Below, piece by piece: positions 13,108 to 46,968 of a stretch of DNA of 64,000 nucleotides. The stretch is taken from assembly GCF_003334305.1 (NCBI RefSeq), contig NZ_QOWS01000014.1, one strand, 5' to 3'. The notes under the pieces were generated by a model. It saw only the letters and a program-made list of their open reading frames with translations, was not told the DNA's origin and ran no database searches. The translations under genes and the position numbers were made by a program. Position 1 is the first letter of the stretch, and every line of letters begins with the position of its first letter. Origin of the DNA: Escherichia coli. Lineage in GTDB: Bacteria > Pseudomonadota > Gammaproteobacteria > Enterobacterales > Enterobacteriaceae.

Positions 13108-13155
13108 GGGTATGTTTATCTGCGACACTCGCAGTACCGACGACATGGAGTAAAA

Positions 13156-27334: not shown

Positions 27335-28496
<1,162 letters not shown>

Positions 28497-28497
<1 letters not shown>

Positions 28498-29354: not shown

Positions 29355-29367
29355 CGTGTTCTCTCCT

Positions 29368-30978
29368 TCAGGCTGATGCGCGTGACGCCAGCCACTGACG
29401 TAATTGTTTTTTATCGACTTTCCCGACCGCCGTCAGCGGAAGTGAATCTACACACTCCACGCGATCCGGTAATTTAAATTCGGCAATACCCTGTTCACGC
29501 AGGAAACGACGCACCTGCACCGCGCGCAGCGGCTCTTTTACCACCAGATAAGCGCAGCTTTTTTCGCCCATCAGCTCATCTTCCATGCTCACCAGTGCGG
29601 CGTAGATCACCGCCGGGTGGCGCAGCAGCAGGTTTTCGATCTCTTCGGCAGCGATCTTCTCACCGCCACGGTTGATCTGATCTTTCTCGCGCCCCTGCAC
29701 GGTGATGTACCCCTCTGGATCAATAGAGATCAGATCGCCGGAACAGTAAAAACCGTTGGCATCAAAGGCACTGGCATTGTGCTGCGGACTTTTGTAATAA
29801 CCGCGGAAGGTGTACGGCCCGCGCGTCATCAGGCGTCCAACTTCCCCTTGCGGCAGTGGATTTCCTTCAGCATCAGCAACCCATACTTCATCGTCCGGAC
29901 ACATTGGGTAACCCTGGGTATGGATAATTTTCTCCGCGCTATCATCAAGTCGGGTGTAGTTCACCAGCCCTTCCGCCATGCCAAACACCTGCTGCAACAG
30001 GCAGCCAATCTCAGCGGGAATACGCGCCGCAAGGGTGGCTGAAAGACGTGCGCCGCCGACCTGTAACAGTTTCAGCGAGGCAAGCTGCGCCCGGCTTTCA
30101 CCTTCGGTCAGCGCCTGCAACCACAGGCTGACTGCCGGTGGCACCAGCGCGGTGACGTTCACCTGATGTTTTTCAATCAATGGGAAGCAAAGCGTGGCGC
30201 TGGGATCGGCCGCCAGAACAACCGTTCCTCCGGCAAGAAAGACGCCCAGCGATCCCGGCGAACTCATGGCGTAGTTATGAGCCGCCGGGATCGCGCACAG
30301 GTAGCGTGTCTGTTGTGTGAACTGACAAATCTCGACGCTACGACGCACGCTGTAGTAGTAGTCGTTATGAGTGCGCGGGATCAGTTTCGGTGTGCCGGTG
30401 GTGCCGCCGGAAAGCTGGAAATAGGCCACTTCATCAGCAGGTGATGGCGTGGCAGTAAAATCCTCAGCCGGATGGTTAATCGCATCCTGCAAGTTATGCT
30501 CACCGCTGTCGTTGTGCAGTTGCACCACGCGAATGGAGGAATGTTCTGTGACGAAAGTATTGAGGAAATCATCCCCGCTAAACAGCGCATGTTGGCGATC
30601 GGCAATCAGCAATGCGGGTTCAATCTGGCTGGCATAGGCGTTCAGTTCACTACGCTGATGGCTGAACAGCGCCAGCACCGGCGCAACGCCCAGTTTCAGC
30701 AGCGCGAAAAAGGTAATATACAATTCAGCGACGTTACCCAGTTGTACCAGCGCGGTTTCACCAGGTTTAATGCCCTGACGGCGTAAACTACACGCGAGGT
30801 TATCCGCCGCCTGATTCAGCTCCCGGTAACTCAACTGTCGCTCGCCGTCGATAACCGCGATGCTGTCACTCGCAGCGTGGCGAGTCAGAATGTCGGTCAG
30901 CGGCAAATCCTGCCAGTAGCCTTTTTCCCGATAGCGACGGGCAAACTCTTCCGGCCAGCGGGTGAATGGAATGCTCAT
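29368..30978 (-). CDS. entE: 2,3-dihydroxybenzoate-AMP ligase EntE
   Basis: 536-aa adenylate-forming enzyme [25 protein letters not shown]. Confidence 0.93.
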
Positions 30979-30987
30979 CCTCGCTCC

Positions 30988-32163
30988 TTAATGCAATCCA
31001 AAAACGTTCAACATGGTAGAAAGTTTGACGCCTGTTTCGCGCCACTCACCCAACGGTGACGACGCAGGCACAATCCCCGCTCCGGCAAACAGACGCACCT
31101 GATTTTCCCGCAGCTTCGCGCAGCGGATGGTCACCACCCATTCGCCGTTACCTTCGCTGTCACACCAACCCACAATGCCGCCAAACAGTTCGCGGTCGAA
31201 TGGCTCCAGTTCAGCAATAACCTGGGTCGCGGCCTGATGCGGGAAACCGCTCAGCGCGGGGGTTGGATGCAGCAGACAGGCCAGAGTCAGTGCGTTTTCT
31301 TGCGAATTCGCTTTACCTTCAAAGGGAGTTGCGAGATGCCACAGCGTCGGCGTGGTAATCAATTGTGGAGAGGAGGGAACGTGTAACTCACTACTGCGTT
31401 CGCGCAGTACCTCTTTCATCGCCTGAGTCACCAGTTCATGTTCATGGCGATCTTTTTCTGACGCCAGCAGACGATTACCCGCTTCGCGATCGAGCACTTC
31501 ATCCGGCTGACGACGCGCGGAACCGGCTAACGGAATGGAGCTAAAACGCTCGCCGTCTTTACGTAGCAGCAGTTCCGGGCTGGCCCCCAGCAGGACGCCA
31601 CCATCAGCCAGCGGGACATGGAAGTTGTAACTAACCGGGTTTTGCGCAATCAACCGTTCCAGCAATACGCCACTATCAATGGCGGCGTCAGTGGTGATAT
31701 CAATCAATCGTGACAACACCACTTTGTCGACCTGCGGCGTGGCGGTAAGTGCGGCGGCGCGGGCAACCATCTGTTCAAACGTGGTTTGTTCAGGAATTGC
31801 CTGGCGTTCCACCACGTTCAGCGACTGGCTGCGGGTAAAACGGCGGGCTGAGGTCTGTTTTTCCTGGCGGGAGAACGACTGCCAGGATTCGGGAATATAC
31901 AGCGACGAAGGCTGACGTGGATCGAAGGGAATCGCCCCGACCATCACCGGATTTTTGATGCCCTGCGCTTTGGCATCGGCAAACAGCGCGGCGAGTTTTT
32001 GCTGGAAGGGACTGTCGGGCGAATCCCCGTTCACAGCCGGTTCATCGAAGCGGGCGAAACATCCTGACGTCGTAAAACTGCGGTACGGCGACATAAAGAA
32101 AAAGCGATTGGGCGCAAGTGTTGCCATGGTCTGCTGTACTTCCTCAGCCAGTGACGTATCCAT
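30988..32163 (-). CDS. entC: isochorismate synthase EntC
   Basis: ORF 30988..32175; start trimmed to the ATG giving [24 protein letters not shown] (391 aa). Confidence 0.92.
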
Positions 32164-32176
32164 ATCATCCTCCACA

Positions 32177-32214
32177 AAATGATAAAGGCTTTAATAATGA
32201 TTATCATTTATATT
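32177..32214. promoter_or_regulatory. Fur box(es) in the entC promoter (entC-fepB divergent region)
   Basis: aaatgataaaggctttaataatgattatcatttatatt contains the Fur consensus-like core ataatgattatcatt 14-50 bp upstream of entC. Confidence 0.75.
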
Positions 32215-32369
32215 TTCGGTCGCTAACCTAAAAGCAAACGCGCACTATGTCAACTCTTGAGGTAACGCAATCTGCAACTCGGGGTTGCATCTGGTTGTGG
32301 TTACAATAAAAATGAGAAGCATTATTGATGGATTCGCATAAGCGCAATGTGATGTCCTGCGCCGTTCTG

Positions 32370-32472
32370 CCCCCTCTCCCTTCCAGGGTGAGGGCTGGGG
32401 TGAGGGTTAATGTTCGCACCAGTGCTGGCTGTTCCCCTCACCCTAACCCTCTCCCCAAAGGGGCGAGGGGAC
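32370..32472. repeat. GC-rich palindromic intergenic repeat in the fepB leader (same family as 24955..25046)
   Basis: ccccctctcccttccagggtgagggctggggtgagggtta ... cccctcaccctaaccctctccccaaaggggcgaggggac; internal inverted repeats. Confidence 0.6.
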
Positions 32473-32537
32473 GGATTGTGCGCTTTGTCGAATTTGTCAT
32501 TACGCCCTTAACCTTATTAATAACAGGAAGCTGATTT

Positions 32538-33494
32538 GTGAGACTCGCCCCGCTCTACCGCAACGCCCTTCTATTAACAGGACTTTTACTTTCAGGAATA
32601 GCCGCAGTTCAGGCCGCTGACTGGCCGCGTCAGATTACTGACAGCCGTGGCACACATACACTGGAAAGCCAGCCGCAGCGTATTGTTTCCACCAGCGTCA
32701 CCCTGACCGGCTCACTGCTGGCGATTGATGCTCCGGTGATCGCCAGCGGCGCGACCACGCCGAATAACCGCGTCGCGGATGACCAGGGCTTTTTACGCCA
32801 GTGGAGCAAGGTGGCGAAAGAACGCAAACTGCAACGGCTCTATATCGGCGAACCGAGCGCCGAAGCCGTTGCCGCGCAAATGCCGGATCTGATTTTAATT
32901 AGCGCAACCGGCGGGGATTCGGCGCTGGCACTGTATGATCAGCTTTCCACCATCGCCCCGACATTAATCATCAATTACGACGACAAAAGCTGGCAGTCGC
33001 TGTTAACGCAGCTTGGCGAAATTACCGGGCATGAGAAACAAGCGGCAGAGCGGATTGCACAGTTTGATAAGCAACTGGCAGCGGCGAAAGAGCAAATCAA
33101 ATTACCGCCGCAGCCGGTCACTGCCATTGTCTATACCGCCGCTGCACACAGTGCCAATCTCTGGACGCCGGAATCAGCACAAGGGCAGATGCTGGAACAA
33201 CTCGGCTTTACGCTGGCGAAGTTGCCCGCAGGGTTAAACGCCAGCCAAAGCCAGGGCAAACGCCATGACATCATTCAGCTTGGTGGGGAAAATCTGGCTG
33301 CTGGGTTAAATGGCGAGTCACTATTCCTGTTCGCCGGTGATCAGAAAGATGCCGATGCGATTTATGCCAATCCACTGCTCGCGCACCTGCCCGCAGTACA
33401 AAACAAGCAGGTTTATGCGCTGGGAACCGAGACGTTCCGCCTGGATTACTACAGCGCCATGCAAGTGCTGGAACGACTTAAGGCGCTGTTTTAA
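32538..33494 (+). CDS. fepB: ferric enterobactin periplasmic binding protein FepB
   Basis: 318-aa ORF with GTG start, [26 protein letters not shown] signal peptide. Confidence 0.92.
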
Positions 33495-33497
33495 GCA

Positions 33498-34748
33498 TTA
33501 ACTGTCAGACGCTGTCACCTGCGGCGGCGTCTGGCGAAAACGTCGCAACTCCACCAGCACCAGCAATAACAACACGCCGATAATCAACAAACCAAAACCG
33601 CTCGCGCTTGCGGAAGCAACCGGTGTCATCATCGCGCCCAAACCACCCAGCAGCGCCGCGCCTATGGCATCGCCCGTCACGTTCTGCGCCGTCCACAAAC
33701 CGTTAATCCGCCCTAACATCGCTTCCGGGGTTTGCGTTTGCAGCATTGTATATTGCAGCAACGAACTAACCGCGCTCAGCCAGCCGAACAGCGCCAGACA
33801 AACCACGCCTAAAATCCACATCGGCATCAGGCCAAACAGACCAATGGCGAGGAACGATCCCAGCGTGGAGAGCAGCATCAATAACCCTGGTCGCGCACTA
33901 TGTGCCAGCTTCCCGCTGGTTAACGCACCAATAGCCGCGCCGAGCGGGATCGCCGCGTAGAGAAAACCAATCTGTGCCGCTGACATCTGCCAGTTGTCAG
34001 CCAGCGCCGGATACAGTACCCGCACCGCGCTCGCCATCGTCAATAAACCACCCAGCAGCGCAATCCCGCCCACCAGCGGGCTGGCAAGCAGAAAACGAAA
34101 TCCTGCCAGTAATGATTTCAACGGATGCTCACGCGGCTGCGGTGGCGGTGGCAACGCCGGAAGGCTTAACAACGGTAGCAAGGTAATAAACGTGCCCGCC
34201 GCCGCCAGCCCGTAGTTCCAGGCTACGCCACCGGTCGCCAGCAATAAACCGCCAATCATGGGCGAAATCACCGACCCCAGACGCACGGTCAACATGGTGA
34301 TCGCCCCGGCCTGCATTAAGTTTTCACGCCCTACCAGTGCTGGTGTCGCCGCCAATAGCGCCGTAACGCCAAGCGATGCGAAAAAACCATCCCATAAACC
34401 AAGTAAATAGATTGCCAGCAATGACGGCTCCGGCAGCAGTGCATTAAGGCACAGTCCAATGAAGCCAATGCCACAGGTGCCGCGCGCCAGCAAAATCACT
34501 TTTTTGCGCTCATAGCGATCCGCCAGCACACCGCCAACCATCAGGCCAACAAACATCGCGCCGCCGGTCAGCGTCACCGAAAGCCCCACCTGCCAGGTAG
34601 AATGCGTCATCATCTGGATCTGCACCGGCACCGCGACGCCGAGCAAACCCAGAGACACAATTGAGATAAAACGAGCGAGGAATACTGCGCGAAACGCCGG
34701 GTGCGTTTTCAACAGGCTGAGGTTAAGCAGCCAGGATTGTTTATTCAT
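33498..34748 (-). CDS. entS: enterobactin exporter EntS (MFS)
   Basis: 416-aa 12-[32 protein letters not shown]. Confidence 0.92.
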
Positions 34749-34821
34749 TACAATGCCTTGCCATCAAATATTTTAAATACCTATTCTTAGGCTGCACATG
34801 CTAACATATCCAAATAAGATC

Positions 34822-34846
34822 GATAACGATAATTAATTTCATTATC
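34822..34846. promoter_or_regulatory. Fur box in the entS / fepD divergent promoter region
   Basis: gataacgataattaatttcattatc immediately upstream of fepD. Confidence 0.75.
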
Positions 34847-34858
34847 ATGGAAGTTCGT

Positions 34859-35863
34859 ATGTCTGGTTCTGTTGCCGTGACACGCGCCATTGCCGTGCCC
34901 GGATTGCTGTTATTACTGATTATCGCGACGGCATTAAGCCTGCTCATTGGGGCAAAATCACTCCCCGCTTCCGTAGTGCTGGAGGCCTTCTCCGGCACCT
35001 GCCAGAGCGCCGACTGCACCATCGTGCTCGACGCGCGTCTGCCGCGTACCCTTGCCGGTTTACTGGCAGGCGGCGCGCTTGGCCTTGCCGGGGCGTTAAT
35101 GCAAACCCTCACCCGTAACCCACTTGCCGACCCCGGCTTGCTTGGCGTGAACGCCGGAGCCAGCTTTGCCATTGTGCTGGGTGCGGCGCTGTTTGGTTAC
35201 TCTTCCGCACAGGAACAACTGGCGATGGCCTTCGCCGGGGCGCTGGTGGCCTCGTTGATTGTTGCCTTTACCGGCAGCCAGGGCGGCGGGCAGTTAAGTC
35301 CGGTGCGTTTAACCCTGGCGGGCGTGGCGCTGGCGGCGGTGCTGGAAGGACTGACCAGCGGCATCGCCCTGCTTAATCCTGACGTCTACGATCAACTGCG
35401 TTTCTGGCAAGCCGGTTCGCTGGATATTCGCAATCTACATACCTTAAAAGTGGTGCTGATCCCGGTTCTGATCGCCGGAGCAACTGCGCTATTACTGAGT
35501 CGCGCGCTGAACAGTTTGAGCCTCGGCAGTGACACCGCGACGGCGCTGGGCAGTCGCGTGGCGCGCACACAGTTAATTGGTCTGCTGGCGATTACCGTGC
35601 TTTGTGGTAGTGCGACAGCGGTAGTTGGCCCGATTGCCTTTATTGGCCTGATGATGCCGCATATGGCGCGTTGGCTGGTGGGTGCCGATCATCGCTGGTC
35701 GCTGCCCGTCACGCTACTCGCCACCCCTGCCCTGCTGCTGTTTGCCGATATCATCGGGCGGGTGATTGTGCCCGGCGAGTTGCGCGTTTCTGTGGTCAGT
35801 GCGTTTATTGGTGCACCGGTGCTGATCTTCCTCGTGCGACGTAAAACGCGAGGTGGTGCATGA
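34859..35863 (+). CDS. fepD: ferric enterobactin ABC transporter permease FepD
   Basis: ORF 34847..35863; start trimmed to ATG at 34859 (MSGSVAVTRAIAVPGLLLLL, 334 aa). Confidence 0.9.
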   Translation: MSGSVAVTRAIAVPGLLLLLIIATALSLLIGAKSLPASVVLEAFSGTCQSADCTIVLDARLPRTLAGLLAGGALGLAGALMQTLTRNPLADPGLLGVNAGASFAIVLGAALFGYSSAQEQLAMAFAGALVASLIVAFTGSQGGGQLSPVRLTLAGVALAAVLEGLTSGIALLNPDVYDQLRFWQAGSLDIRNLHTLKVVLIPVLIAGATALLLSRALNSLSLGSDTATALGSRVARTQLIGLLAITVLCGSATAVVGPIAFIGLMMPHMARWLVGADHRWSLPVTLLATPALLLFADIIGRVIVPGELRVSVVSAFIGAPVLIFLVRRKTRGGA

Positions 35864-36852
35864 TTTACGTCTCTCGCCGATTACTCATCACCTGTTTGCT
35901 GCTTATTTCCGCCTGTGTGGTTGCAGGTATCTGGGGATTACGCAGCGGTGCCGTCACGCTGGAAACCTCGCAGGTATTCGCCGCGCTGATGGGCGATGCG
36001 CCGCGCAGTATGACGATGGTGGTCACCGAATGGCGTTTACCACGCGTGCTGATGGCGCTGTTGATTGGCGCGGCACTGGGCGTCAGCGGTGCGATTTTTC
36101 AGTCGCTGATGCGTAACCCGCTCGGCAGCCCTGACGTAATGGGCTTTAACACCGGGGCGTGGAGCGGCGTGCTGGTGGCGATGGTGCTGTTTGGTCAGGA
36201 CCTGACGGCTATCGCGCTGGCAGCAATGGTGGGCGGCATTGTCACTTCTCTGTTGGTCTGGCTGCTCGCCTGGCGTAACGGTATCGACACCTTTCGGTTG
36301 ATTATTATCGGCATCGGCGTTCGCGCCATGCTGGTGGCCTTTAATACCTGGCTGTTGCTGAAAGCGTCTTTAGAAACGGCGCTAACAGCGGGTTTGTGGA
36401 ATGCCGGATCGCTCAATGGCCTGACGTGGGCAAAAACTTCGCCTTCCGCACCCATCATTATATTGATGCTCATTGCCGCCGCCTTGCTGGTGCGGCGAAT
36501 GCGCTTGCTGGAGATGGGCGATGATACCGCCTGCGCGCTGGGCGTCAGCGTCGAGCGTTCGCGTCTGTTAATGATGCTGGTTGCAGTGGTGCTTACCGCT
36601 GCGGCAACGGCGCTTGCCGGGCCGATTTCCTTTATTGCTTTAGTCGCGCCGCACATTGCCCGACGCATTAGCGGCACCGCTCGCTGGGGGCTGACCCAGG
36701 CGGCGCTGTGCGGAGCGCTGTTACTGCTGGCGGCCGATCTCTGCGCCCAACAACTGTTTATGCCGTATCAACTTCCGGTTGGCGTCGTTACCGTCAGCCT
36801 CGGCGGTATTTACCTTATCGTCTTGTTAATTCAGGAGTCTCGCAAAAAATGA
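35860..36852 (+). CDS. fepG: ferric enterobactin ABC transporter permease FepG
   Basis: 330-aa ORF overlapping the fepD stop. Confidence 0.92.
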   Translation: MIYVSRRLLITCLLLISACVVAGIWGLRSGAVTLETSQVFAALMGDAPRSMTMVVTEWRLPRVLMALLIGAALGVSGAIFQSLMRNPLGSPDVMGFNTGAWSGVLVAMVLFGQDLTAIALAAMVGGIVTSLLVWLLAWRNGIDTFRLIIIGIGVRAMLVAFNTWLLLKASLETALTAGLWNAGSLNGLTWAKTSPSAPIIILMLIAAALLVRRMRLLEMGDDTACALGVSVERSRLLMMLVAVVLTAAATALAGPISFIALVAPHIARRISGTARWGLTQAALCGALLLLAADLCAQQLFMPYQLPVGVVTVSLGGIYLIVLLIQESRKK

Positions 36853-37664
36853 CCGAATCAGTAGCCCGTTTGCGCGGCGAACAGTTAACCCTGGGATATG
36901 GCAAATATACCGTTGCGGAAAATCTGACTGTAGAAATTCCTGATGGTCACTTCACGGCAATTATCGGACCAAATGGCTGTGGTAAATCCACGTTACTGCG
37001 TACCTTAAGCCGCCTGATGACGCCTGCTCACGGGCATGTCTGGCTGGATGGCGAGCACATTCAACATTACGCCAGTAAAGAAGTTGCACGCCGGATTGGT
37101 CTGTTGGCGCAAAATGCTACCACGCCGGGCGATATCACCGTGCAGGAGCTGGTGGCGCGTGGACGTTATCCGCATCAACCGCTGTTTACCCGCTGGCGCA
37201 AAGAGGATGAAGAAGCGGTAACGAAAGCGATGCAGGCCACGGGAATAACTCATCTGGCAGATCAAAGCGTGGATACCCTTTCTGGCGGACAACGCCAGCG
37301 AGCGTGGATCGCGATGGTGCTGGCCCAGGAAACGGCAATTATGCTGCTCGACGAACCCACGACCTGGCTGGATATCAGTCATCAGATTGATCTACTGGAA
37401 CTGTTAAGCGAACTGAACCGCGAGAAAGGCTATACCCTGGCGGCGGTGCTGCACGATCTTAATCAGGCCTGTCGTTACGCCAGCCATTTGATTGCATTGC
37501 GGGAAGGGAAAATTGTTGCTCAGGGAGCGCCGAAGGAGATTGTCACTGCTGAACTGATTGAGCGCATTTATGGTCTGCGATGCATGATCATTGACGATCC
37601 GGTAGCCGGAACGCCGCTTGTGGTGCCGCTCGGACGAACGGCACCTTCAACCGCAAATAGTTAA
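36849..37664 (+). CDS. fepC: ferric enterobactin ABC transporter ATPase FepC
   Basis: ORF 36708..37664; start trimmed to ATG at 36849 overlapping the fepG stop (MTESVARLRGEQLTLGYG, 271 aa); Walker A GPNGCGKST. Confidence 0.92.
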   Translation: MTESVARLRGEQLTLGYGKYTVAENLTVEIPDGHFTAIIGPNGCGKSTLLRTLSRLMTPAHGHVWLDGEHIQHYASKEVARRIGLLAQNATTPGDITVQELVARGRYPHQPLFTRWRKEDEEAVTKAMQATGITHLADQSVDTLSGGQRQRAWIAMVLAQETAIMLLDEPTTWLDISHQIDLLELLSELNREKGYTLAAVLHDLNQACRYASHLIALREGKIVAQGAPKEIVTAELIERIYGLRCMIIDDPVAGTPLVVPLGRTAPSTANS

Positions 37665-38794
37665 ACTAAGTGGTCTGCCATCATGGCATCCTGTTTTCTG
37701 GATGCCATCGCATAGCGCAATAACACGCTACCACAAGCCACCATCCCGCCGATCAGCGCGGAAAGGATCACAATAATCGCCTTACCCGGACCGTCTTTTT
37801 TCACTGGCAATGACGGGCTTAACTGATATTTAAACGGCGTAAAATTCACATCGTTGATATTTGCTTTTGTTAACTGCTCAACAAGATACTGACGATTACG
37901 TAATTCACCGTTCAGTTCCGCAACGTCAGTGACCGCTTTTTCAATTTCCAGTTTGCGTTCAATACCGTCTGCGCCGAGAGAAATAGAGAAATCGGGGTCA
38001 TCTTTAACGGCCTGACCATTACTGTATACGGGCTTTTTAATTCCCGCCGCGTTGGCAATGTCGAGTGAATAATTGAGGCGCTGAATGTTTGCATCAAGTT
38101 GATTTTTCGTTTTAATGCGATCCTGAGCCAGTTTTTCTTTTTCAAACTGGGTTTTGATCTCCAGTTTATTACGGACGTTTTCTATCGACTCTTTCACCAC
38201 CAACGCAGAGATATAATCGATATACCCGCTCAAAACGGTCTGCGCCTCTTTACTGGTTGGCGCGGTAAAACTTAGCGTCCAGGAGGTATACAGTGACGGT
38301 TCATCTTTTTTCTTACTGGCATTGTCATCAACCGCTTTCATTTTTTCGCTCAATGCAACAATAGCGCGATGCAAATCCAGTTCATCGATTTTCGCCTCTT
38401 TTAATTGGTCCATCACATAAGGTGATGAACGCAGGTACTCTTCCAGCAAGCTAACAGACTGAAACTTCTTGATAAACAGGTTAAATGCACCGCCACGGTC
38501 GATATTAACATCGAGATCAAGAACGCGGAGTTTGGTAAAGGTTTTCTCCAGGTCCTGCCACTGAATGGCTTCGGCGGGAGTAATAACGGCTGAGCTGGTC
38601 CATTTTTGCGGCAGGATGAAAGAGATCAGTAAACCTGCGCAGGCAAATGCAAAAACGACCGCCATGACCGTTTTTTTGGCCCGCCATAAAACTTCGATTA
38701 GATTAAGTAAATCAATTTCATTATTACTGGGCGACGCCAGAGGATACTCAGAAAAATGAGCGTCACTTCCCTGTTTAATATTCAATGATGACAT
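37661..38794 (-). CDS. fepE: polysaccharide co-polymerase (Wzz-like) FepE
   Basis: 377-aa ORF MSSLNIKQGSDAHFSEYPLASPSNNEIDLL; 3' end overlaps the convergent fepC by 4 bp. Confidence 0.9.
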   Translation of the reverse strand: MSSLNIKQGSDAHFSEYPLASPSNNEIDLLNLIEVLWRAKKTVMAVVFAFACAGLLISFILPQKWTSSAVITPAEAIQWQDLEKTFTKLRVLDLDVNIDRGGAFNLFIKKFQSVSLLEEYLRSSPYVMDQLKEAKIDELDLHRAIVALSEKMKAVDDNASKKKDEPSLYTSWTLSFTAPTSKEAQTVLSGYIDYISALVVKESIENVRNKLEIKTQFEKEKLAQDRIKTKNQLDANIQRLNYSLDIANAAGIKKPVYSNGQAVKDDPDFSISLGADGIERKLEIEKAVTDVAELNGELRNRQYLVEQLTKANINDVNFTPFKYQLSPSLPVKKDGPGKAIIVILSALIGGMVACGSVLLRYAMASRKQDAMMADHLV

Positions 38795-38960
38795 GGGGTA
38801 TAACCTGAAAATGAGTCCAATAGGGGAAAATCTCCACGGCGCTCACTTTACCAGTTGGTGAGAATTATCCGAAGCTGAAGTTTGTAAATTCCTTCCACTG
38901 AATGCAACATTCACTCTATTTAAGAGAAATAACTAGCAAACTTATAAACTAAATAAATGA

Positions 38961-38994
38961 TTAACCCATAATTATTTCCTATAATTATGGGTTA
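38961..38994. promoter_or_regulatory. perfect 14-bp-arm AT-rich palindrome between entF and fepE (entF terminator hairpin and/or fepE operator)
   Basis: ttaacccataatta-tttcc-taattatgggttaa located 16-50 bp downstream of the entF stop. Confidence 0.45.
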
Positions 38995-39009
38995 ATAGAT
39001 AATGTTAAT

Positions 39010-42000
39010 TTACCTGTTTAGCGTTGCGCGAATAATCGGCCCAATTTTTTCAAACGCCCCTGGAGAGATAATATCCACATGCGCACAATCCTGACGATAG
39101 ATATCCAGCTCCGCAATCCACGGCGACCAGGCGCGTTCGGGGCTCATACCTTCCTGAAGCGTGCGTTCAGCAACAAACAGCGTCGCTTTACCATCAAACG
39201 GTACGCTATGAGCAGTCGTCAGCAGGCGCACAGCATCAGCGTAGTTGCCTTCAATGGTGGTAAACAACTCCGTTGAAGTACTTCCCTGCTGTGCAGCCAG
39301 GAAGGCCTCGCGCTCGCGGTTAATCTCCGCCAGCACTTCCGGGTCCAGACCATTAGCTTCTTTTTCCTGCCAGTTTTGCGTTTCTGGCGGCCAGGTATCC
39401 AGCAAGCCAAGAAATGCCACCTGTTCGCCACGGGCACGCAGTCGCGCCGCAATACCCTGCACCAGCGTACCGCCAAGGGAATACCCCAGCAGGTAATAAG
39501 GGCCGTGCGGTTGTTGCTCAAGTAACGTTGCCAGATGCGCTTCGCAGACTTCATCCAGGTTTGTCGCTGTCTGCATGGGTCCATGAGGGCGCGGCGACTG
39601 AATGCCAATAATCGACCATTGTGGATCGAGATAACGCGAGAGCACGCTAAACTGCCAGGCAAAACCGGATGCCGGATGGAAACAAAACAGCGTCGGGCCA
39701 TTACCTTCACGCAACGGCAGAATGGTTTCGAATCCCATGCGCCGGGAGCTGTCCTCTTCACCATCAATAATCGTTGCCAGTTTGGCGACGGTTGACGCGA
39801 CCATCACCTGCCCCGGCGTCACCTGACGAGCAAACTGTCGACTTAACTGCGCTGCCAGTTTCATTGCCAGTAGCGAATGACCGCCCAGCGCAAAGAAATC
39901 AGCATCGGCATCCTGCACGTCACAACCCAGCAACGACGCGAATGCCGCGGCGATAATCTTTTCACTGCCCGCTTTCGGTGCACGTCCCGACGCTTGTGTC
40001 TTCAGTTCAGGCAACGGTAAGGCTTTGCGATCCAGCTTGCCGTTGGCGCTAAGAGGTAACTGTGGAAGTTGCAGCAGAACCACCGGCACCATATGCGGCG
40101 GCAATGTTTCGCGAAGCTGTGCCTGTAATGCGCTGGTATCCAACGGCAGACCTGATTGCGACACCAGATAGCCCACCAACTGACGCGCATCACCACCGGT
40201 GGCTGCCGCCAGGTTAATCACACAGGCGTGGGTAACGGCTTGTTTGACATCCGGCAGCGCCTGCATCACGCGATCGATTTCGCCCAGTTCGATACGCTGC
40301 CCGCGAATTTTTAGCTGATCGTCACTGCGCCCGAGGTACTCCACCGCGCCGTTATCCAGCCAGCGGGCGACGTCTCCGGTACGATACATCCGTTCACCTG
40401 GGGCAAAAGGATCGGCAATAAAACGGCTGGCGGTCAGATCGGGTCGTCCAAGATACCCCTGCGCCAGTTGGATGCCGGTGAGATAGAGATCACCCGCCAC
40501 ACCCGGCGGCACCGGATGCATCATCGCATCAAGAATACGCAGACCCGTATTCCATACCGGATAACCAATCGGCACACTGCTGCCGCGCACCTGTGCCAGT
40601 TCCTCGCCAAAAGCCGGATACCAGCTGACATCTACCGCCGCTTCCGTCGGGCCATACAGGTTATGCAACGGCGCGCCGGTTAACTGTTGCCATTCGCGGC
40701 ATAAATCAGCCGGTAAGGCCTCACCACTACAGAAAACCTGTTTCAACGTCGCGCAATTCTGGCGAGCGGTTTGCGGCGTCAGCGATGCAACAAATGCCGC
40801 CAGCATCGACGGCACAAAGTGCGTGGTCGTTACGCCATATTCGGCAAAGAATTGCTGCATAGCGAGCGGGTCACGGTGCGCTTCCGGTTCAGCCATCACC
40901 AGTTTTGCCCCTGCGATAAACGGCCAGAAAAACTCCCACACCGAGACATCAAAACTGCACGGCGTTTTTTGGGCAACGACATCTTCGCCTGTAAGCGGGT
41001 AGTGATTTTGCATCCATAACAGGCGGTTAACGATAGCCGTCTGCCCGACCATTACACCTTTCGGCCTGCCGGTGGAGCCAGAGGTAAAGATGATATAAGC
41101 CGTGTGGTGCGGTTGTGAAAGTTGCAGCGGCGCACTGCCCTGGGGGGTAAGCGGGGCGTTATAGCAAAGGCTTGTTAAATTGGGAACATCGCTAAAGCGC
41201 GGCAGTTGATCGTCGGTGGTAATTAACAGCGACGGACGCGCATCTTCCAGCATCATTTTCAGGCGATCGTCCGGATAGCCGGTATCCAGCGGTAGCCAGG
41301 CCGCGCCAGCTTCAACTATTGCATGGAGTGCCAGGGTCAAAAAGACCGAGCGCGGTAGTGCCACCGCCACGCTGTCCCCTGGTTTAACGCCGCGCTCACG
41401 CAGCAGATTCGCCAGCGCCACCACCTGCTCGCGCATTTCCCGATAGCTGAACAGGTAACGCGCATCTGCCAGCGCCGGAGCATCCGGTGTTTTTGCCGCT
41501 TGTTCTGCCACCAGCGCGCTCAGCGTGGTTTCTGGAATCTCAACCTGAGTGGCGTTGATCTGCGCCAGCTGCGCATACTCACCTGGCAGCATAATATCGA
41601 CATCGCCGCACAACAGCGCCGGATCCGCGGCGAACTGGGCAATCAGCATTTTCAGGCGTTCAGCATGCTGGATTAACGTTGGCTCATCGTAACGCTGTTT
41701 ATTGGCGAGGATCTCAATACTCAAATCACCGTGTTCATCCGGGAACAGGGCCAGTTCAAGGTCATTAACCGGACCGGTTGCCAGGGTATGGGTTTGCGTC
41801 TGAACACCAGGAATATCCAGTTGGTAATCAAATACCTTGATATTGAGTACCGGACCGAACAGCGGTTCCTCTCCTGCCGCTCGCCCGCTGTCACGGACAA
41901 TTTGTTCGGCATCGTAACGTTGATGACGACGCATTTTTTTCAGTTGTGCTGCCAGTCGGGTTGCCAGTTCCGGCAGCGTTTCTTGCGCCGCAATGTGAAT

Positions 42001-42891
42001 ACCCAACGGTAAAACGTTGAGCACGGGTCCGCTAGCCGTCAGCGCCGCCGAGCCCAGTCGACGCATAAAGATAAATCCGGCGGCATAGTCCATGCGATTG
42101 CACAATCGCCCCAGCCACAAGGCTGCCAGCGCAAGGGCTAAATCGGTACGCTGCACACCTGAAAGTTGCGTAGCCAGCTGGCGGAATTCCCCGTCGGTAA
42201 ATTCCAGTTTCAGGCGCAGAATATCTGCCGAAGCGCTGCGCCTCGCTAAAGGTGCCGGAGAAAGTGACGCGGGCGGCGGCAGTTGACGACGCTGTTCTGC
42301 CCAGAATGCCGCATCACGCTGCCAGGCTTCGCTTTCGCGGTATTGCTGGTACTCTTCCACTACATCAGCGAAAGGCGTAAACGGCGAAGCAGGCGTTGGT
42401 TCGCCACGCAGCCATGTGCAGTAAATATTGGCGATCTGGCGAGTAATGGCCGGGAAACTGAAGCCATCGACCAGCAAATGGTGATAACGCTGATACCAGT
42501 ACCAGCGGTTATCCGCAACATGTATCAGCTGATGAAAGACCAGTGGTTTACCGCTATCGACGCGCAAATCTTGTTGCAAATCCGCCAGCATTAATGCCTG
42601 CGCAGTACCGTGCGGATCAATATTGGTTCGCAGGTCGATAATTTCTGGCAGTTCGAATATCAGCGCATCATCGACCCACTGCCAGACTTCGCCGTTATCT
42701 TCCGTAAAACGCATCCGCAACGTATCTGCTTGCGCTAGTCCGACAACCACCGCGCGGGCCAGTAATGGCGCATCAACATCTCCAGTTAACTCAACGTAAT
42801 GCGCCACGCTCCAGGCGGAGGGTAAATCCGACAGTTTTTCTGCCATCCAGATGCCGGGCTGTGCGGCGACCAAAGGTAAATGCTGGCTCAT
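39010..42891 (-). CDS. entF: enterobactin NRPS EntF (C-A-PCP-TE, serine-activating)
   Basis: ORF 39010..43029; start trimmed to the ATG giving MSQHLPLVAAQPGIWMAEKL (1293 aa); start overlaps the ybdZ stop (ATGA). Confidence 0.93.
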   Translation of the reverse strand: MSQHLPLVAAQPGIWMAEKLSDLPSAWSVAHYVELTGDVDAPLLARAVVVGLAQADTLRMRFTEDNGEVWQWVDDALIFELPEIIDLRTNIDPHGTAQALMLADLQQDLRVDSGKPLVFHQLIHVADNRWYWYQRYHHLLVDGFSFPAITRQIANIYCTWLRGEPTPASPFTPFADVVEEYQQYRESEAWQRDAAFWAEQRRQLPPPASLSPAPLARRSASADILRLKLEFTDGEFRQLATQLSGVQRTDLALALAALWLGRLCNRMDYAAGFIFMRRLGSAALTASGPVLNVLPLGIHIAAQETLPELATRLAAQLKKMRRHQRYDAEQIVRDSGRAAGEEPLFGPVLNIKVFDYQLDIPGVQTQTHTLATGPVNDLELALFPDEHGDLSIEILANKQRYDEPTLIQHAERLKMLIAQFAADPALLCGDVDIMLPGEYAQLAQINATQVEIPETTLSALVAEQAAKTPDAPALADARYLFSYREMREQVVALANLLRERGVKPGDSVAVALPRSVFLTLALHAIVEAGAAWLPLDTGYPDDRLKMMLEDARPSLLITTDDQLPRFSDVPNLTSLCYNAPLTPQGSAPLQLSQPHHTAYIIFTSGSTGRPKGVMVGQTAIVNRLLWMQNHYPLTGEDVVAQKTPCSFDVSVWEFFWPFIAGAKLVMAEPEAHRDPLAMQQFFAEYGVTTTHFVPSMLAAFVASLTPQTARQNCATLKQVFCSGEALPADLCREWQQLTGAPLHNLYGPTEAAVDVSWYPAFGEELAQVRGSSVPIGYPVWNTGLRILDAMMHPVPPGVAGDLYLTGIQLAQGYLGRPDLTASRFIADPFAPGERMYRTGDVARWLDNGAVEYLGRSDDQLKIRGQRIELGEIDRVMQALPDVKQAVTHACVINLAAATGGDARQLVGYLVSQSGLPLDTSALQAQLRETLPPHMVPVVLLQLPQLPLSANGKLDRKALPLPELKTQASGRAPKAGSEKIIAAAFASLLGCDVQDADADFFALGGHSLLAMKLAAQLSRQFARQVTPGQVMVASTVAKLATIIDGEEDSSRRMGFETILPLREGNGPTLFCFHPASGFAWQFSVLSRYLDPQWSIIGIQSPRPHGPMQTATNLDEVCEAHLATLLEQQPHGPYYLLGYSLGGTLVQGIAARLRARGEQVAFLGLLDTWPPETQNWQEKEANGLDPEVLAEINREREAFLAAQQGSTSTELFTTIEGNYADAVRLLTTAHSVPFDGKATLFVAERTLQEGMSPERAWSPWIAELDIYRQDCAHVDIISPGAFEKIGPIIRATLNR

Positions 42892-43106
42892 TGTGCCTCC
42901 TGCAACTGGGTGAAATTGGCCGGTGTCAGAGTACGCCAGTGGACTTCCAGCCACTGCTGGCAGGACGCCTGTGACTGCGGCTGACACACAATGTCCCAGC
43001 CTGCCGGTAAGGCGCATTGTTGCGGCCACAGACTGAATTGCCCCTGCGCATTGCGCAAAATGTAAAACGCTCCCTGTGGATCATCGAAGGGATTACTGAA
43101 TGCCAT
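42888..43106 (-). CDS. ybdZ: MbtH-like protein YbdZ
   Basis: ORF 42888..43112; ATG at 43104-43106 gives MAFSNPFDDPQGAFYILRNAQGQFSLWP (72 aa). Confidence 0.9.
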   Translation of the reverse strand: MAFSNPFDDPQGAFYILRNAQGQFSLWPQQCALPAGWDIVCQPQSQASCQQWLEVHWRTLTPANFTQLQEAQ

Positions 43107-43108
43107 AT

Positions 43109-44233
43109 TCAACTCCTGTCATGGAAAAGTGGTTGCCAGAGGTCGATTAGCCCCTGCATCAAGCCACCGCGCCAACAAAGCGCATCATGTCCGCCGTCAA
43201 CCTGACGCCAGAAAATGGATTCTTTTATGGGGTGTAATTGCGCATACAGCGCCTGATTGGCCCGCATAATCATCGGCTCGCGAATACCCGCTTCCAGCAC
43301 AATGCGCAGACCTTCGGCGCTAACTTCACCAGCTTTAAGCTTTTCAAGTAACACGCCCTCTTGCTGCCCGCCCCGATGCGGCCACCAGTACGATCCTGAC
43401 TGGCTTAATACACAGCCAAAGCGTTCAGGCCAGTGCAGTCCGGCATACAGCGCGGAAAGTCCACCAAAACTCTGCCCGGCGACCACGGTGCGATCGGCGC
43501 GATCGCTAAAAGGGGCAATAGCTTTCACCAGGGGTAATAACTCTTGCTGTACTGCCAGCCAGAAATCCGCATTACACGGCAGTTCGTGAGCGCGGTGCGT
43601 AGTGTCGATAGCGTCGATCAACACATACACGGCGGGAGGAAGTTGCTGACGATGGGTCAACGAAGTCAGCACAGGCCAGACAGGCATACTCTGCGCCCAA
43701 AATTCGCCATCGAGCAAAACTGCCAGCGGGCGTTCTCCTGCTGTTGCATCGCCAGTGGTAAAAATCCATACACGGCGTGAATTTTTCAACCGTTCACTTT
43801 TCCAGATAATTTCTTTGGCAGGCGTTTCTGGCGCTTGCGGACAATCCCATCCCGGTTGCAGAGGCGCTTGCGGCATTTCGAGTGCAGAAACAGCGTGCCC
43901 TCGCCCGCCTTTCCAGCTTTGTGGATTCAGCGGATCGGCTATTGCCTGGGGTAATAGTTTTCGCCAGCCTTCACGTAATTCGAGGCGATCGGGGGATGGT
44001 GCAGAAAAAATGTCATCGCGTTCGGTGGGAATAAAACAGTAGCTGCCGCGCCAGTTGGCATTGAGTTGTGTCGTCCACTGCCAGACGTTGGTGCCTGCAA
44101 TTCGCTGCATCGACTGGGGCTGGCTGTTCTGATGGTGATCGGTCACACCAGTGATGTAGACCCATACGCGCTTTATCGTCGAGTATTCTTCAGAACCTTG
44201 GGGATCACGCCACCAGAAAGTGACCTCAAACAT
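43109..44233 (-). CDS. fes: enterobactin esterase Fes
   Basis: ORF 43109..44311; start placed at the ATG giving MFEVTFWWRDPQG (374 aa); the frame stays open 26 codons further up to a GTG at 44311. Confidence 0.8.
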   Translation of the reverse strand: MFEVTFWWRDPQGSEEYSTIKRVWVYITGVTDHHQNSQPQSMQRIAGTNVWQWTTQLNANWRGSYCFIPTERDDIFSAPSPDRLELREGWRKLLPQAIADPLNPQSWKGGRGHAVSALEMPQAPLQPGWDCPQAPETPAKEIIWKSERLKNSRRVWIFTTGDATAGERPLAVLLDGEFWAQSMPVWPVLTSLTHRQQLPPAVYVLIDAIDTTHRAHELPCNADFWLAVQQELLPLVKAIAPFSDRADRTVVAGQSFGGLSALYAGLHWPERFGCVLSQSGSYWWPHRGGQQEGVLLEKLKAGEVSAEGLRIVLEAGIREPMIMRANQALYAQLHPIKESIFWRQVDGGHDALCWRGGLMQGLIDLWQPLFHDRS

Positions 44234-44360
44234 TTCGTCATTCAGACGCTGCCATTCCGGGCCATGTTTCGACTGCCACCAGCTCTCACTTCCTACTTTT
44301 AACGCCGTCACACCATAACCCCATGTTTACTGTGCAATTTTTCATTGATTGCAGAAATAT

Positions 44361-44400
44361 ATTGATAATATTATTGATAACTATTTGCATTTGCAATAGC
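44361..44400. promoter_or_regulatory. overlapping Fur boxes of the bidirectional fes / fepA promoter
   Basis: attgataatattattgataactatttgcatttgcaatagc; tandem GATAAT-type repeats. Confidence 0.75.
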
Positions 44401-44553: not shown

Positions 44554-46794
44554 ATGAACAAGAAGATTCATTCCCTGGCCTTGTTGGTCAATCTGGGGAT
44601 TTATGGGGTAGCGCAGGCACAAGAGCCGACCGATACTCCTGTTTCACATGACGATACTATTGTCGTTACCGCCGCCGAGCAGAACTTGCAGGCACCTGGC
44701 GTTTCGACCATCACCGCAGATGAAATCCGCAAAAACCCAGTTGCCCGCGATGTGTCGGAGATCATCCGTACCATGCCAGGCGTTAACCTGACCGGTAACT
44801 CCACCAGTGGTCAGCGTGGTAATAACCGCCAGATTGATATTCGCGGCATGGGTCCGGAAAACACGCTGATTTTGATTGACGGCAAGCCAGTAAGCAGCCG
44901 TAATTCGGTGCGTCAGGGCTGGCGTGGTGAGCGCGATACCCGTGGTGATACCTCCTGGGTGCCACCTGAAATGATTGAACGTATTGAAGTTCTGCGTGGT
45001 CCGGCAGCTGCGCGTTATGGCAACGGCGCGGCGGGCGGCGTGGTTAACATCATTACCAAAAAAGGCAGTGGTGAGTGGCACGGCTCCTGGGATGCTTATT
45101 TCAATGCGCCAGAACATAAAGAGGAAGGTGCCACCAAACGTACCAACTTCAGCCTGACCGGTCCGCTGGGCGACGAATTCAGCTTCCGCTTGTATGGCAA
45201 CCTCGACAAAACCCAGGCTGACGCGTGGGATATCAACCAGGGCCATCAGTCCGCGCGTGCCGGAACGTATGCCACGACGTTACCAGCCGGGCGCGAAGGG
45301 GTGATCAACAAAGATATTAATGGCGTGGTGCGCTGGGACTTCGCGCCTCTGCAATCACTCGAACTGGAAGCGGGTTACAGCCGCCAGGGTAACCTGTATG
45401 CGGGCGATACCCAGAACACCAACTCTGACGCTTACACTCGCTCGAAATATGGCGATGAAACCAACCGCCTGTATCGCCAGAACTACTCGCTGACCTGGAA
45501 CGGTGGCTGGGATAACGGCGTGACCACCAGCAACTGGGTGCAGTACGAACACACCCGTAACTCGCGTATTCCGGAAGGTCTGGCGGGCGGTACCGAAGGG
45601 AAATTTAACGAAAAAGCGACACAGGATTTCGTCGATATCGATCTTGATGACGTGATGCTGCACAGCGAAGTTAACCTGCCGATTGATTTCCTCGTTAACC
45701 AGACGCTGACGCTGGGTACGGAGTGGAATCAGCAACGGATGAAGGACTTGAGTTCCAATACCCAGGCGCTGACCGGGGCGAACACCGGCGGCGCTATTGA
45801 TGGTGTGAGTGCCACCGACCGTAGCCCGTATTCAAAAGCAGAAATTTTCTCGCTGTTTGCCGAAAACAACATGGAGCTGACTGACAGCACCATCGTAACG
45901 CCGGGGCTGCGTTTCGATCATCACAGTATTGTCGGCAATAACTGGAGCCCGGCGCTGAACATATCGCAAGGTTTAGGCGATGACTTCACGCTCAAAATGG
46001 GCATTGCCCGTGCTTATAAAGCACCGAGCCTGTACCAGACTAACCCGAACTACATTCTCTACAGTAAAGGTCAGGGTTGCTATGCCAGCGCGGGCGGCTG
46101 CTATCTGCAAGGTAACGATGACCTGAAAGCAGAAACCAGCATCAACAAAGAGATTGGTCTGGAGTTCAAACGCGACGGCTGGCTGGCGGGCGTCACCTGG
46201 TTCCGTAACGATTATCGCAATAAGATTGAAGCGGGCTATGTGGCTGTAGGGCAAAACGCAGTCGGCACCGATCTCTATCAGTGGGATAACGTGCCGAAAG
46301 CAGTGGTTGAAGGTCTGGAAGGATCGTTAAACGTACCAGTTAGCGAAACGGTGATGTGGACCAATAACATCACTTATATGCTGAAGAGTGAAAACAAAAC
46401 CACGGGCGACCGTTTGTCGATCATCCCGGAGTACACGTTGAACTCAACGCTGAGCTGGCAGGCGCGGGAAGATTTGTCGATGCAAACGACCTTCACCTGG
46501 TACGGTAAGCAGCAGCCGAAAAAATACAACTACAAAGGTCAGCCAGCGGTTGGCCCGGAAACCAAAGAAATCAGTCCTTACAGCATTGTGGGTCTGAGCG
46601 CGACCTGGGATGTGACGAAGAATGTCAGTCTGACCGGCGGCGTGGACAACCTGTTCGACAAACGTTTGTGGCGTGCGGGTAATGCCCAGACCACGGGCGA
46701 TCTGGCAGGGGCCAACTATATCGCGGGTGCCGGGGCGTATACCTATAACGAGCCGGGACGTACGTGGTACATGAGCGTAAACACTCACTTCTGA
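44554..46794 (+). CDS. fepA: TonB-dependent ferric enterobactin outer-membrane receptor FepA
   Basis: ORF 44494..46794; start trimmed to ATG at 44554 (MNKKIHSLALLVNLGIYGVAQA signal peptide, 746 aa); TonB box DTIVVTA; C-terminal F. Confidence 0.93.
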   Translation: MNKKIHSLALLVNLGIYGVAQAQEPTDTPVSHDDTIVVTAAEQNLQAPGVSTITADEIRKNPVARDVSEIIRTMPGVNLTGNSTSGQRGNNRQIDIRGMGPENTLILIDGKPVSSRNSVRQGWRGERDTRGDTSWVPPEMIERIEVLRGPAAARYGNGAAGGVVNIITKKGSGEWHGSWDAYFNAPEHKEEGATKRTNFSLTGPLGDEFSFRLYGNLDKTQADAWDINQGHQSARAGTYATTLPAGREGVINKDINGVVRWDFAPLQSLELEAGYSRQGNLYAGDTQNTNSDAYTRSKYGDETNRLYRQNYSLTWNGGWDNGVTTSNWVQYEHTRNSRIPEGLAGGTEGKFNEKATQDFVDIDLDDVMLHSEVNLPIDFLVNQTLTLGTEWNQQRMKDLSSNTQALTGANTGGAIDGVSATDRSPYSKAEIFSLFAENNMELTDSTIVTPGLRFDHHSIVGNNWSPALNISQGLGDDFTLKMGIARAYKAPSLYQTNPNYILYSKGQGCYASAGGCYLQGNDDLKAETSINKEIGLEFKRDGWLAGVTWFRNDYRNKIEAGYVAVGQNAVGTDLYQWDNVPKAVVEGLEGSLNVPVSETVMWTNNITYMLKSENKTTGDRLSIIPEYTLNSTLSWQAREDLSMQTTFTWYGKQQPKKYNYKGQPAVGPETKEISPYSIVGLSATWDVTKNVSLTGGVDNLFDKRLWRAGNAQTTGDLAGANYIAGAGAYTYNEPGRTWYMSVNTHF

Positions 46795-46833
46795 TGCTAA
46801 CGTCAGATTGTTGACAAAGTGCGCGTCGTTCAT

Positions 46834-46931
46834 GCCGGATGCGGCGTGAACGCCTTATCCGGCCTACAAAAATCTTGCCAATTCAATATATTGCAGGACC
46901 ATGTAGGCCTGATAAGCGTAGCGCATCAGGC
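46834..46931. repeat. BIME-like pair of inverted REP elements downstream of fepA
   Basis: gccggatgcggcgtgaacgccttatccggcctac (46834..46867) and inverted gtaggcctgataagcgtagcgcatcaggc (46893..46931). Confidence 0.8.
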
Positions 46932-46968
46932 AGTTTAGCGTTTGTCATCAGTCTCTAATATGGTCGAC

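Follow-up and report, generated by a model that had tools for sequence, protein, structure and literature searches.

The enterobactin (ent) operators count among the cases on which the idea of Fur regulation was founded, and their footprints date back decades. DNase I footprints at the fepA-fes, fepD-entS, entC, and fepB loci of Escherichia coli K-12 have been compiled by Chen et al. (2007, PMC2189734, Table 3) from Brickman et al. 1990, Hunt et al. 1994, and Lavrrar et al. 2002; these published footprints were obtained with purified Fur. Chen et al. describe the architecture of these operators as arrays of overlapping sites, and in K-12 the genes next to them are reported to be repressed in vivo in a manner that depends on iron and fur (PMC4911079). 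Generic forms of the Fur box include the 19-bp GATAATGATAATCATTATC consensus, the 7-1-7 TGATAATnATTATCA motif, and arrays of GATAAT hexamers. Here we compare the ent/fep cluster of another E. coli strain with these described systems.

The enterobactin cluster and its Fur operators

The window, meaning the whole 64-kb stretch of DNA that was analyzed, comes from an E. coli chromosome and contains the ent/fep cluster, which runs in the opposite direction to that of K-12. The 12.7-kb cluster is 100% identical to that of strains H15 and A28. Gene calls were taken from the PGAP annotation of the identical strain A28 together with the open frames in the window, and the operon structure of fes-ybdZ-entF(-fepE) was taken from PMC4911079. 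Gene order is canonical, the annotation has no pseudogenes in ent/fep, and every ent/fep reading frame is open and of the same length as in K-12. The operators and their target genes are collected in Table 1.

TABLE 1 Regulatory features and target genes of the ent/fep cluster, in window coordinates
Feature	Position	Strand	Description	Basis
entC (entCEBAH) Fur operator	32178..32214		4 overlapping sites: 10.2, 24.3, 4.5, and 17.0 bits	Matrix scan
fepB Fur operator	32305..32329		Two overlapping sites centered at 32314 and 32320, 6 bp apart; 12.2 and 16.2 bits
Single-base variant in fepB operator	32308..32308		A here, G in K-12	61-mer with A in 10/5426 genomes
Palindromic insertion, fepB 5' leader	32325..32510		186 bp; two inverted BoxC/TMECO motifs: 32372-32406 (+) and 32435-32469 (-)
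entS/fepDGC Fur operator, common to both	34819..34849		12.7, 20.7, and 6.2 bits; 6-bp spacing	Matrix scan
fes/fepA Fur operator, common to both	44361..44391		8.9, 4.6, and 19.5 bits; 6-bp spacing	Matrix scan
entCEBAH operon, regulated target	27335..32163	-	entC ATG 32163	PGAP (A28) and open frames
fepB, regulated target	32538..33494	+		PGAP (A28) and open frames
entS, regulated target	33498..34748	-	entS ATG 34748	PGAP (A28) and open frames
fepDGC operon, regulated target	34859..37664	+	fepD ATG 34859	PGAP (A28) and open frames
fes-ybdZ-entF(-fepE) transcription unit, regulated target	37661..44311	-	fes GTG 44311	PGAP and open frames
fepA-entD operon, regulated target	44554..47589	+	fepA ATG 44554	PGAP and open frames

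The window was scanned with a 19-bp Fur matrix built from 17 K-12 Fur sites, none from the ent cluster (fhuA, gpmA, fur, oppA, tonB, nohA, yoeA, cir, exbB, ryhB, sodA, fecA, fecI, fhuF, fadD, yahA, and bfd), whose leave-one-out scores ranged from 5.1 to 29.1 bits. Among 63,982 positions, ranks 1, 2, and 3 were taken by sites centered at 32199 (24.3 bits), 34834 (20.7 bits), and 44382 (19.5 bits), and the top seven matches in the 64 kb all lie within the entC-fepB, entS-fepD, and fes-fepA intergenic regions. The original prediction had listed Fur-like AT-rich repeats at 32177..32214, 34822..34846, and 44361..44400, and the matrix clusters fall on all three, which head the ranking rather than scoring below background. 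The count of three divergent Fur regions proved right about these stretches and incomplete about the operators, which number four; that of fepB had been missed. Similarly, the box that had been assigned to entC/fepB as one region is a Fur operator, but it belongs to entC. fepB has its own footprinted array, for which the K-12 footprint maps to 32302-32332, and the two arrays are separate, about 115 to 121 bp apart.

Each operator consists of two to four positive-scoring sites, with centers 6 bp apart in three operators and neighboring centers 12, 3, and 3 bp apart in that of entC, where a 6-bp offset between sites also occurs. All four are intergenic and lie 25 to 218 bp upstream of the start codons of iron-acquisition genes. 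The strongest entC site precedes the entC ATG by 36 bp. In the entS/fepD operator the strongest site is 25 bp from the fepD ATG and 86 bp from the entS ATG, and in the fes/fepA operator the corresponding distances are 71 bp to the fes GTG and 172 bp to the fepA ATG, each site lying upstream of both genes. We identify these stretches, with a probability of about 97% and no contrary observation, as the Fur operators that serve the enterobactin (ent/fep/fes) cluster of E. coli.

Correspondence with K-12 and conservation

The operators occupy the same loci and gene-relative positions as those of K-12 and have the same sequence, with the exception of base 32308. After coordinate mapping, the K-12 centers 624072, 621437, and 611889 (Chen et al., PMC2189734) become 32199, 34834, and 44382. 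The best sites of the entC, entS/fepD, fes/fepA, and fepB operators score 24.3, 20.7, 19.5, and 16.2 bits here versus 23.1, 19.4 to 20.1, 18.7, and 16.7 bits for K-12 in Chen et al. The entC operator lies inside its K-12 footprint, which maps to 32169-32217, and the footprints of entS/fepD and fes/fepA map to 34809-34877 and 44356-44403, respectively. Across all four operators the site clusters cover 45 to 81% of the footprints, similar to the published coverage of 54 to 81% (PMC2189734). The three listed operators had been presented as expected rather than novel, and that description was borne out, as all three map onto published K-12 footprints with identical sequence. These three operators are already known and ordinary, being the same as the footprinted K-12 sites.

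These sequences are also stable beyond K-12. The three listed operators are identical in 91 to 98% of 5426 complete E. coli genomes (5294 for entC, 4981 for entS/fepD, and 4952 for fes/fepA). The entC, fepB, and fepD-entS sites are kept in other Escherichia, Citrobacter, and Pluralibacter, while the nearby leader sequence diverges. The 20-nt core of the entC site is identical in E. albertii, E. whittamii, Citrobacter spp., Pluralibacter, and Yokenella, and the entS/fepD site is kept at the orthologous position in E. albertii, E. whittamii, Citrobacter, and Pluralibacter. Pluralibacter also has the orthologous fes/fepA site, with one substitution. Of the Escherichia and Citrobacter genomes, the 14 whose sequence extends to the fepB site centered at 32314 read AATGAAAATGAGAAGCATT there.

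On the strength of this identical DNA, Fur binding at the operators of the window would be expected to carry over from K-12, for the fepB array with one base excepted. By analogy with the published work, Fur would occupy these sites in this strain, occlude the promoters, and repress the genes according to iron supply. When iron is plentiful, Fe2+-Fur dimers would bind arrays of overlapping 19-bp sites (aATGATAATnATTATCAtt), offset mostly by 6 bp and probably situated over or just downstream of the promoters, a placement drawn in part from the summary of Chen et al. Bound Fur would block RNA polymerase and keep six transcription units off, with one array serving fes-entF and fepA-entD, another serving entS and fepDGC, and one each for entCEBAH and fepB. 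When iron is scarce, Fur would leave the DNA, and the genes for siderophore synthesis, export, uptake, and hydrolysis would be turned on together.

The fepB operator and its leader

The A at 32308 is the sole difference from K-12 across the three intergenic regions (32140-32560, 34730-34880, and 44290-44580). Fur control of part of the cluster might be altered in this lineage even with the sites present, either through this change, as a weakened fepB site beside the -10 element with partial derepression or changed promoter strength, or through a change elsewhere in the genome, in fur or another factor. The base adjoins the 3' end of a putative -10 hexamer, TACAAT (32302-32307). G is the norm at this base in E. 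coli and is invariant in other Escherichia species, Citrobacter, and Pluralibacter; the rarity of the A (Table 1) also fits such a change, as does the position of the fur gene outside the window. With G the 32314 site scores 14.9 bits and with A 12.2 bits, a loss of 2.7 bits, but the lower value remains above the 11.1 bits of the weakest model site of Chen et al. (PMC2189734), and A occurs at that matrix position in 4 of the 34 training half-sites. Moreover, the change does not reach the stronger of the two overlapping sites (32311-32329, 16.2 bits), and the remaining three operators are unchanged. We regard altered control as unlikely and retain the reading of these stretches as ordinary Fur operators. 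The earlier statement that iron regulation is intact applies to the DNA sites of the three listed operators, which are as in K-12. Because the fepB operator has the rare A, "intact" does not hold in the strict sense for all four operators, and because fur is outside the window, the statement extends to DNA sites only.

The fepB leader also carries a palindromic insertion, for which the closest described relatives, relevant to this leader only, are the BoxC/PIT/TMECO intrastrand-triplex repeats (Holder et al. 2015, PMC4666352). The leader resembles them in consensus, containing two exact matches to the pattern CCCTCNCCCN3-6GGGNGAGGGN3GGGNGAGGG where none are expected, which places the pair in the BoxC/TMECO family. 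The two motifs have the same sequences as the inverted pair TMECO nos. 7 and 8 of MG1655 (PMC4666352, Table 1). The insertion is predicted to form a hairpin of -91 kcal/mol. TMECO loci vary between strains according to PMC4666352, and the fepB-leader locus is likewise variable: 2755 of 5426 E. coli genomes, about half, have the insertion, which is absent from O157 Z869, UPEC U013, E. albertii, and Citrobacter. Where present, it lengthens the leader by 186 nt and the intergenic region from 188 to 374 bp.

The left junction of the insertion falls inside the fepB Fur site at 32311-32329, where the inserted TTGAT stands in place of the ancestral ACTTC and raises the score of the site from 12.2 to 16.2 bits. 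The main text of PMC4666352 names neither fepB nor entC, so that the place of the pair in the fepB leader and its junction in a footprinted Fur operator are unrecorded there. A literature search on the fepB leader found nothing specific. In the small lineage that has it (10 of 5426 complete genomes), the A at 32308 could ease the repression of fepB by Fur or change the strength of its promoter, setting fepB apart from the rest of the regulon; the BoxC/TMECO palindrome may have rebuilt the 3' half of the operator, and strains with and without it may regulate fepB differently. Taken jointly, these propositions are unlikely.

Specificity of the matrix matches

Ten of the 17 training sites had been picked by Chen et al. 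with a model that included ent sites. As a control, a footprint-only matrix was built from the seven non-ent footprinted sites, and its top nine matches fell in the same operators. Dinucleotide-preserving shuffles of the window yielded 0.2 sites of at least 15 bits, compared with 5 observed, and the maximum score in 300 such shuffles averaged 12.6 bits (standard deviation, 2.6). One further pair of sites, at 38704-38728 in the 5' coding region of fepE (11.4 and 7.1 bits), was taken as chance, since a shuffled window is expected to contain about 2.1 sites scoring 10 bits or more. An Rfam scan of the window returned no match within the three regulatory regions.

The classical 19-bp consensus performed poorly. 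The entS/fepD operator is the best match to GATAATGATAATCATTATC in the window, and with three mismatches its box is the only one among the operators found at a threshold of three or fewer. The entC site has one mismatch to the 7-1-7 motif. Unlike the generic box, the fes/fepA and fepB sites are recognized only by weight matrix or overlapping-array models: the fepB site has five mismatches to the classical 19-mer and the fes/fepA box six, as do 25 positions in the window. Because the fes/fepA box could not be separated from background, the consensus was dropped as a test in favor of the weight matrix. Two of the four operators are thus poorly tested by consensus matching, while the weight matrix works cleanly.

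The AT-rich DNA might instead be mainly a target of nucleoid proteins (H-NS, Fis, or IHF) or of other regulators, with Fur secondary. Such proteins commonly bind AT-rich intergenic DNA, and their co-binding would be compatible with Fur operators. The sequence-specific Fur matrix nevertheless picks these sites from all other AT-rich DNA in the 64 kb, and the K-12 footprints came from Fur in purified form, which together make a primary role for other proteins very improbable. The idea that AT-rich promoter DNA (-10-like or UP-element-like) produces these matches without any specific Fur site draws on the 53 to 71% AT content of the regions, on a simple sigma-70 consensus scan that gave only weak 9/12 matches in the three regions, mostly over and inside the Fur boxes, without locating the real promoters, and on the poor standing of the fes/fepA box by the classical consensus, but its probability is close to nil, as only 0 to 4 of 2000 dinucleotide-preserving shuffles of these AT-rich segments score as high as the real sequence, Fur footprints in K-12 cover DNA of identical sequence, and the 19-mers are kept across genera while neighboring intergenic bases vary. 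Chance and AT-richness as explanations are ruled out by the global and local shuffles together.

The assignment of these stretches as Fur operators of the enterobactin cluster is therefore the reading that we carry forward. The unchanged operators show only the standard iron-responsive control DNA for enterobactin in this E. coli. Only in the fepB operator and leader does this control system vary within the species, through presence or absence of the palindrome and, in this lineage, a rare substitution.

Fur sites of the enterobactin cluster

The window carries the canonical enterobactin cluster in reversed orientation relative to K-12 (MG1655). Gene coordinates follow PGAP gene calls for A28, an identical strain, after a shift of +22,999; each of these reading frames is uninterrupted in the window and as long as in K-12. 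Several complete E. coli chromosomes (H15, A28, and others) match the 12.7 kb from 32000 to 44700 at 100% identity, and this span is found in essentially all of 5426 complete E. coli genomes. Outside the cluster, A28 is annotated with frameshifted ybdL and hcxA pseudogenes (A28 1-1661); the window has a full 362-aa open reading frame at hcxA (23572-24660), so A28 itself is probably not its source. Downstream of entD, A28 has two annotated hokE genes where K-12 has IS186 instead.

Coordinates of genes, K-12 footprints, Fur site clusters, best matrix matches, and RNA elements in the window
Feature	Window position	Strand	Details	Source
entH-entA-entB-entE-entC	27335-32163	minus		A28 PGAP annotation
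fepB	32538-33494	plus		A28 PGAP annotation
entS	33498-34748	minus		A28 PGAP annotation
fepD-fepG-fepC	34859-37664	plus		A28 PGAP annotation
fepE, entF, ybdZ, fes	37661-44311	minus		A28 PGAP annotation
fepA-entD	44554-47589	plus		A28 PGAP annotation
entC footprint	32169-32217		NC_000913.2 624054-624102	PMC2189734
fepB footprint	32302-32332		NC_000913.2 623939-623969	PMC2189734
fepD-entS footprint	34809-34877		NC_000913.2 621394-621462	PMC2189734
fepA-fes footprint	44356-44403		NC_000913.2 611868-611915	PMC2189734
entC cluster	32178-32214		four sites; 76% of mapped footprint covered	matrix
fepB cluster	32305-32329		two sites; 81% covered	matrix
entS/fepD cluster	34819-34849		three sites; 45% covered	matrix
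fes/fepA cluster	44361-44391		three sites; 65% covered	matrix
Rank 1, entC operator	centre 32199		24.3 bits	matrix
Rank 2, fepD-entS operator	centre 34834		20.7 bits	matrix
Rank 3, fes-fepA operator	centre 44382		19.5 bits	matrix
Rank 4, entC operator	centre 32205		17.0 bits	matrix
Rank 5, fepB operator	centre 32320		16.2 bits	matrix
Rank 6, fepD-entS operator	centre 34828		12.7 bits	matrix
Rank 7, fepB operator	centre 32314		12.2 bits	matrix
sok antitoxin RNA	47855-48010, 48358-48514		two tandem matches	Rfam
ES036 (CssrF) sRNA	46869-46910		between fepA and entD	Rfam
rnk leader	13002-13110			Rfam
STnc70	18249-18342			Rfam

A Fur matrix was built from seventeen K-12 sites, none from the ent cluster, using coordinates from Tables 3 and 4 of Chen et al. 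(2007; PMC2189734) that were corrected for genome version, verified against gene starts, and then centre-aligned. The symmetrised 19-bp matrix (AATGATAATnATTATCATT; ~22.8 bits) was scored at each of the 63,982 window positions. The seven best matches in the 64 kb all fell within three ent/fep intergenic regions, and the sites that the original prediction had read at 32177-32214, 34822-34846, and 44361-44400 ranked 1 to 3 rather than below background. The centres of these three coincide exactly with K-12 Fur sites (624072, 621437, and 611889), whose published scores of 23.1, 19.4-20.1, and 18.7 bits are close to those found here (Chen et al., PMC2189734).

An alternative explanation would be that AT-richness produces such matches. 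When each AT-rich stretch was shuffled separately, the observed score was reached in 0-4 of 2000 trials, which rules out this cause. In dinucleotide shuffles of the whole window the top score averaged 12.6 bits (sd 2.6), and 0.2 sites scored 15 bits or more, where the real sequence has 5. Because ten of the seventeen training sites had originally been chosen by a model that itself contained ent sites, we rescanned with a matrix of the seven footprinted non-ent sites; the nine best matches again all lay inside the ent/fep operators. A weak Fur-like pair in the fepE 5' coding region (38704-38728; 11.4 and 7.1 bits, 6 bp apart) is probably due to chance, since each shuffled window is expected to hold about 2 sites that reach 10 bits.

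Footprints and operator architecture

Aligned pairwise to MG1655, the three intergenic regions gave a constant coordinate relation (window position = 657,048 - NC_000913.3 coordinate, or 656,271 - NC_000913.2 coordinate). Throughout 32140-32560, 34730-34880, and 44290-44580 the window is K-12 sequence, the sole mismatch being at 32308 (A here, G in K-12). Four DNase I footprints are tabulated for the K-12 enterobactin cluster (Chen et al. 2007, PMC2189734, Table 3), and the entC, fepD-entS, and fepA-fes footprints respectively contain the three predicted intervals. The Fur-box-like character of these intervals is confirmed. All three operators are real, but the total is four: the box at 32177-32214, which had been assigned to entC and fepB together, is a Fur operator of entC, and fepB has a separate one at 32305-32329.

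By the matrix, every operator consists of several sites that overlap and score positively. The spacing of neighbouring centres is 6 bp in three of the clusters (fepB, entS/fepD, and fes/fepA); in the entC cluster the steps are 12, 3, and 3 bp. The Fur arrays of Chen et al. (PMC2189734) have the same overlapping architecture and similar footprint coverage. The entC centre precedes entC by 36 bp; the centre shared by fepD and entS is 25 bp and 86 bp away from them, respectively; and the fes-fepA centre is 172 bp from fepA and, with the fes GTG as now annotated, 71 bp from fes. These distances agree with those of Chen et al. (PMC2189734) except at fes, for which 149 bp was given because an older, shorter fes annotation was used. 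A consensus promoter scan of the three regulatory regions was uninformative on promoters.

The fepB operator and leader

The fepB operator comprises two overlapping sites (12.2 and 16.2 bits) ~115-121 bp from the entC box, and it holds the single K-12 difference. A at 32308 is rare, occurring in 10 of the 5426 complete E. coli genomes, and G is the general state; all 14 Escherichia and Citrobacter genomes reaching the fepB site carry the 19-mer AATGAAAATGAGAAGCATT unchanged, and the equivalent G is also kept in Pluralibacter. The change lowers the affected site from 14.9 to 12.2 bits (-2.7), leaves the overlapping 16.2-bit site unaltered, and is the first base 3' of a putative -10 hexamer, TACAAT. 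Any effect of the change is probably small. The O157:H7 genome Z869 has TATAAT at this putative hexamer, versus TACAAT in K-12 and the window, which makes the hexamer a second naturally variable point of the fepB control region.

A 186-bp palindromic insertion in the fepB 5' leader (32325-32510), present in the window and in K-12, is predicted to fold into a near-perfect hairpin (-91 kcal/mol) and contains two inverted BoxC/TMECO motifs, exactly the pair listed as MG1655 TMECO nos. 7 and 8 (Holder et al. 2015, PMC4666352, Table 1). TMECO loci vary between strains (Holder et al. 2015, PMC4666352). The full 374-bp stretch between entC and fepB is found in 2755 of 5426 genomes, the others matching only as far as 32324; the intergenic region measures 188 bp in O157:H7 Z869 and the uropathogenic genome U013. 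Among the genomes compared, the insertion is lacking in O157:H7, UPEC, E. albertii, Escherichia sp. MOD1, and Citrobacter, and the short leader is ancestral because the last three all carry it. The left junction falls within the K-12-footprinted fepB operator, where inserted TTGAT in place of ancestral ACTTC, the site's last five bases, raises the score from 12.2 to 16.2 bits. The insertion is a curiosity that leaves the main conclusion unaffected. E. whittamii carries, at this insertion site, a version of the palindromic element that has collapsed to 101 bp and holds no intact TMECO motif but still forms a hairpin (-48 kcal/mol). Elsewhere in the window, at 24959-24995 immediately downstream of cstA, 37 bp of the TMECO element recur on the opposite strand at 95% identity.

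Conservation and iron regulation

Of the 5426 complete E. coli genomes, 5294 have the entC footprint sequence unchanged over its full length, 4981 that of fepD-entS, and 4952 that of fepA-fes. A search across species with the 20-nt entC box core, one genome per species, found it in 18 genomes of Enterobacteriaceae, each time in the orthologous position beside the entC start: those of E. coli, E. albertii, E. whittamii, and one more Escherichia species, twelve of Citrobacter, and those of Pluralibacter and Yokenella. In those loci the fepB site is kept ~104-122 bp from the entC box and the fepD-entS site ~2.4-2.6 kb from it, the latter identical in Escherichia and with two changes, both toward consensus, in Citrobacter and Pluralibacter. 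The Pluralibacter fes-fepA site is kept with one change. Exact copies of the entC box core also occur in unrelated bacteria (Acinetobacter, Photobacterium, Listeria, Brevibacillus, and others), presumably as Fur boxes of other genes.

The further claim that iron regulation is intact holds for the DNA sites, whose presence, specificity, arrangement, identity to footprinted DNA, and conservation are observed directly; it does not extend to regulation as a whole, since the fur gene was not found within the 64-kb window. The enterobactin Fur operators are real, were correctly interpreted, and were already known. In this strain we infer Fur occupancy and repression: Fe2+-Fur dimers would coat the operator arrays and occlude the promoters, and iron limitation would release the arrays.
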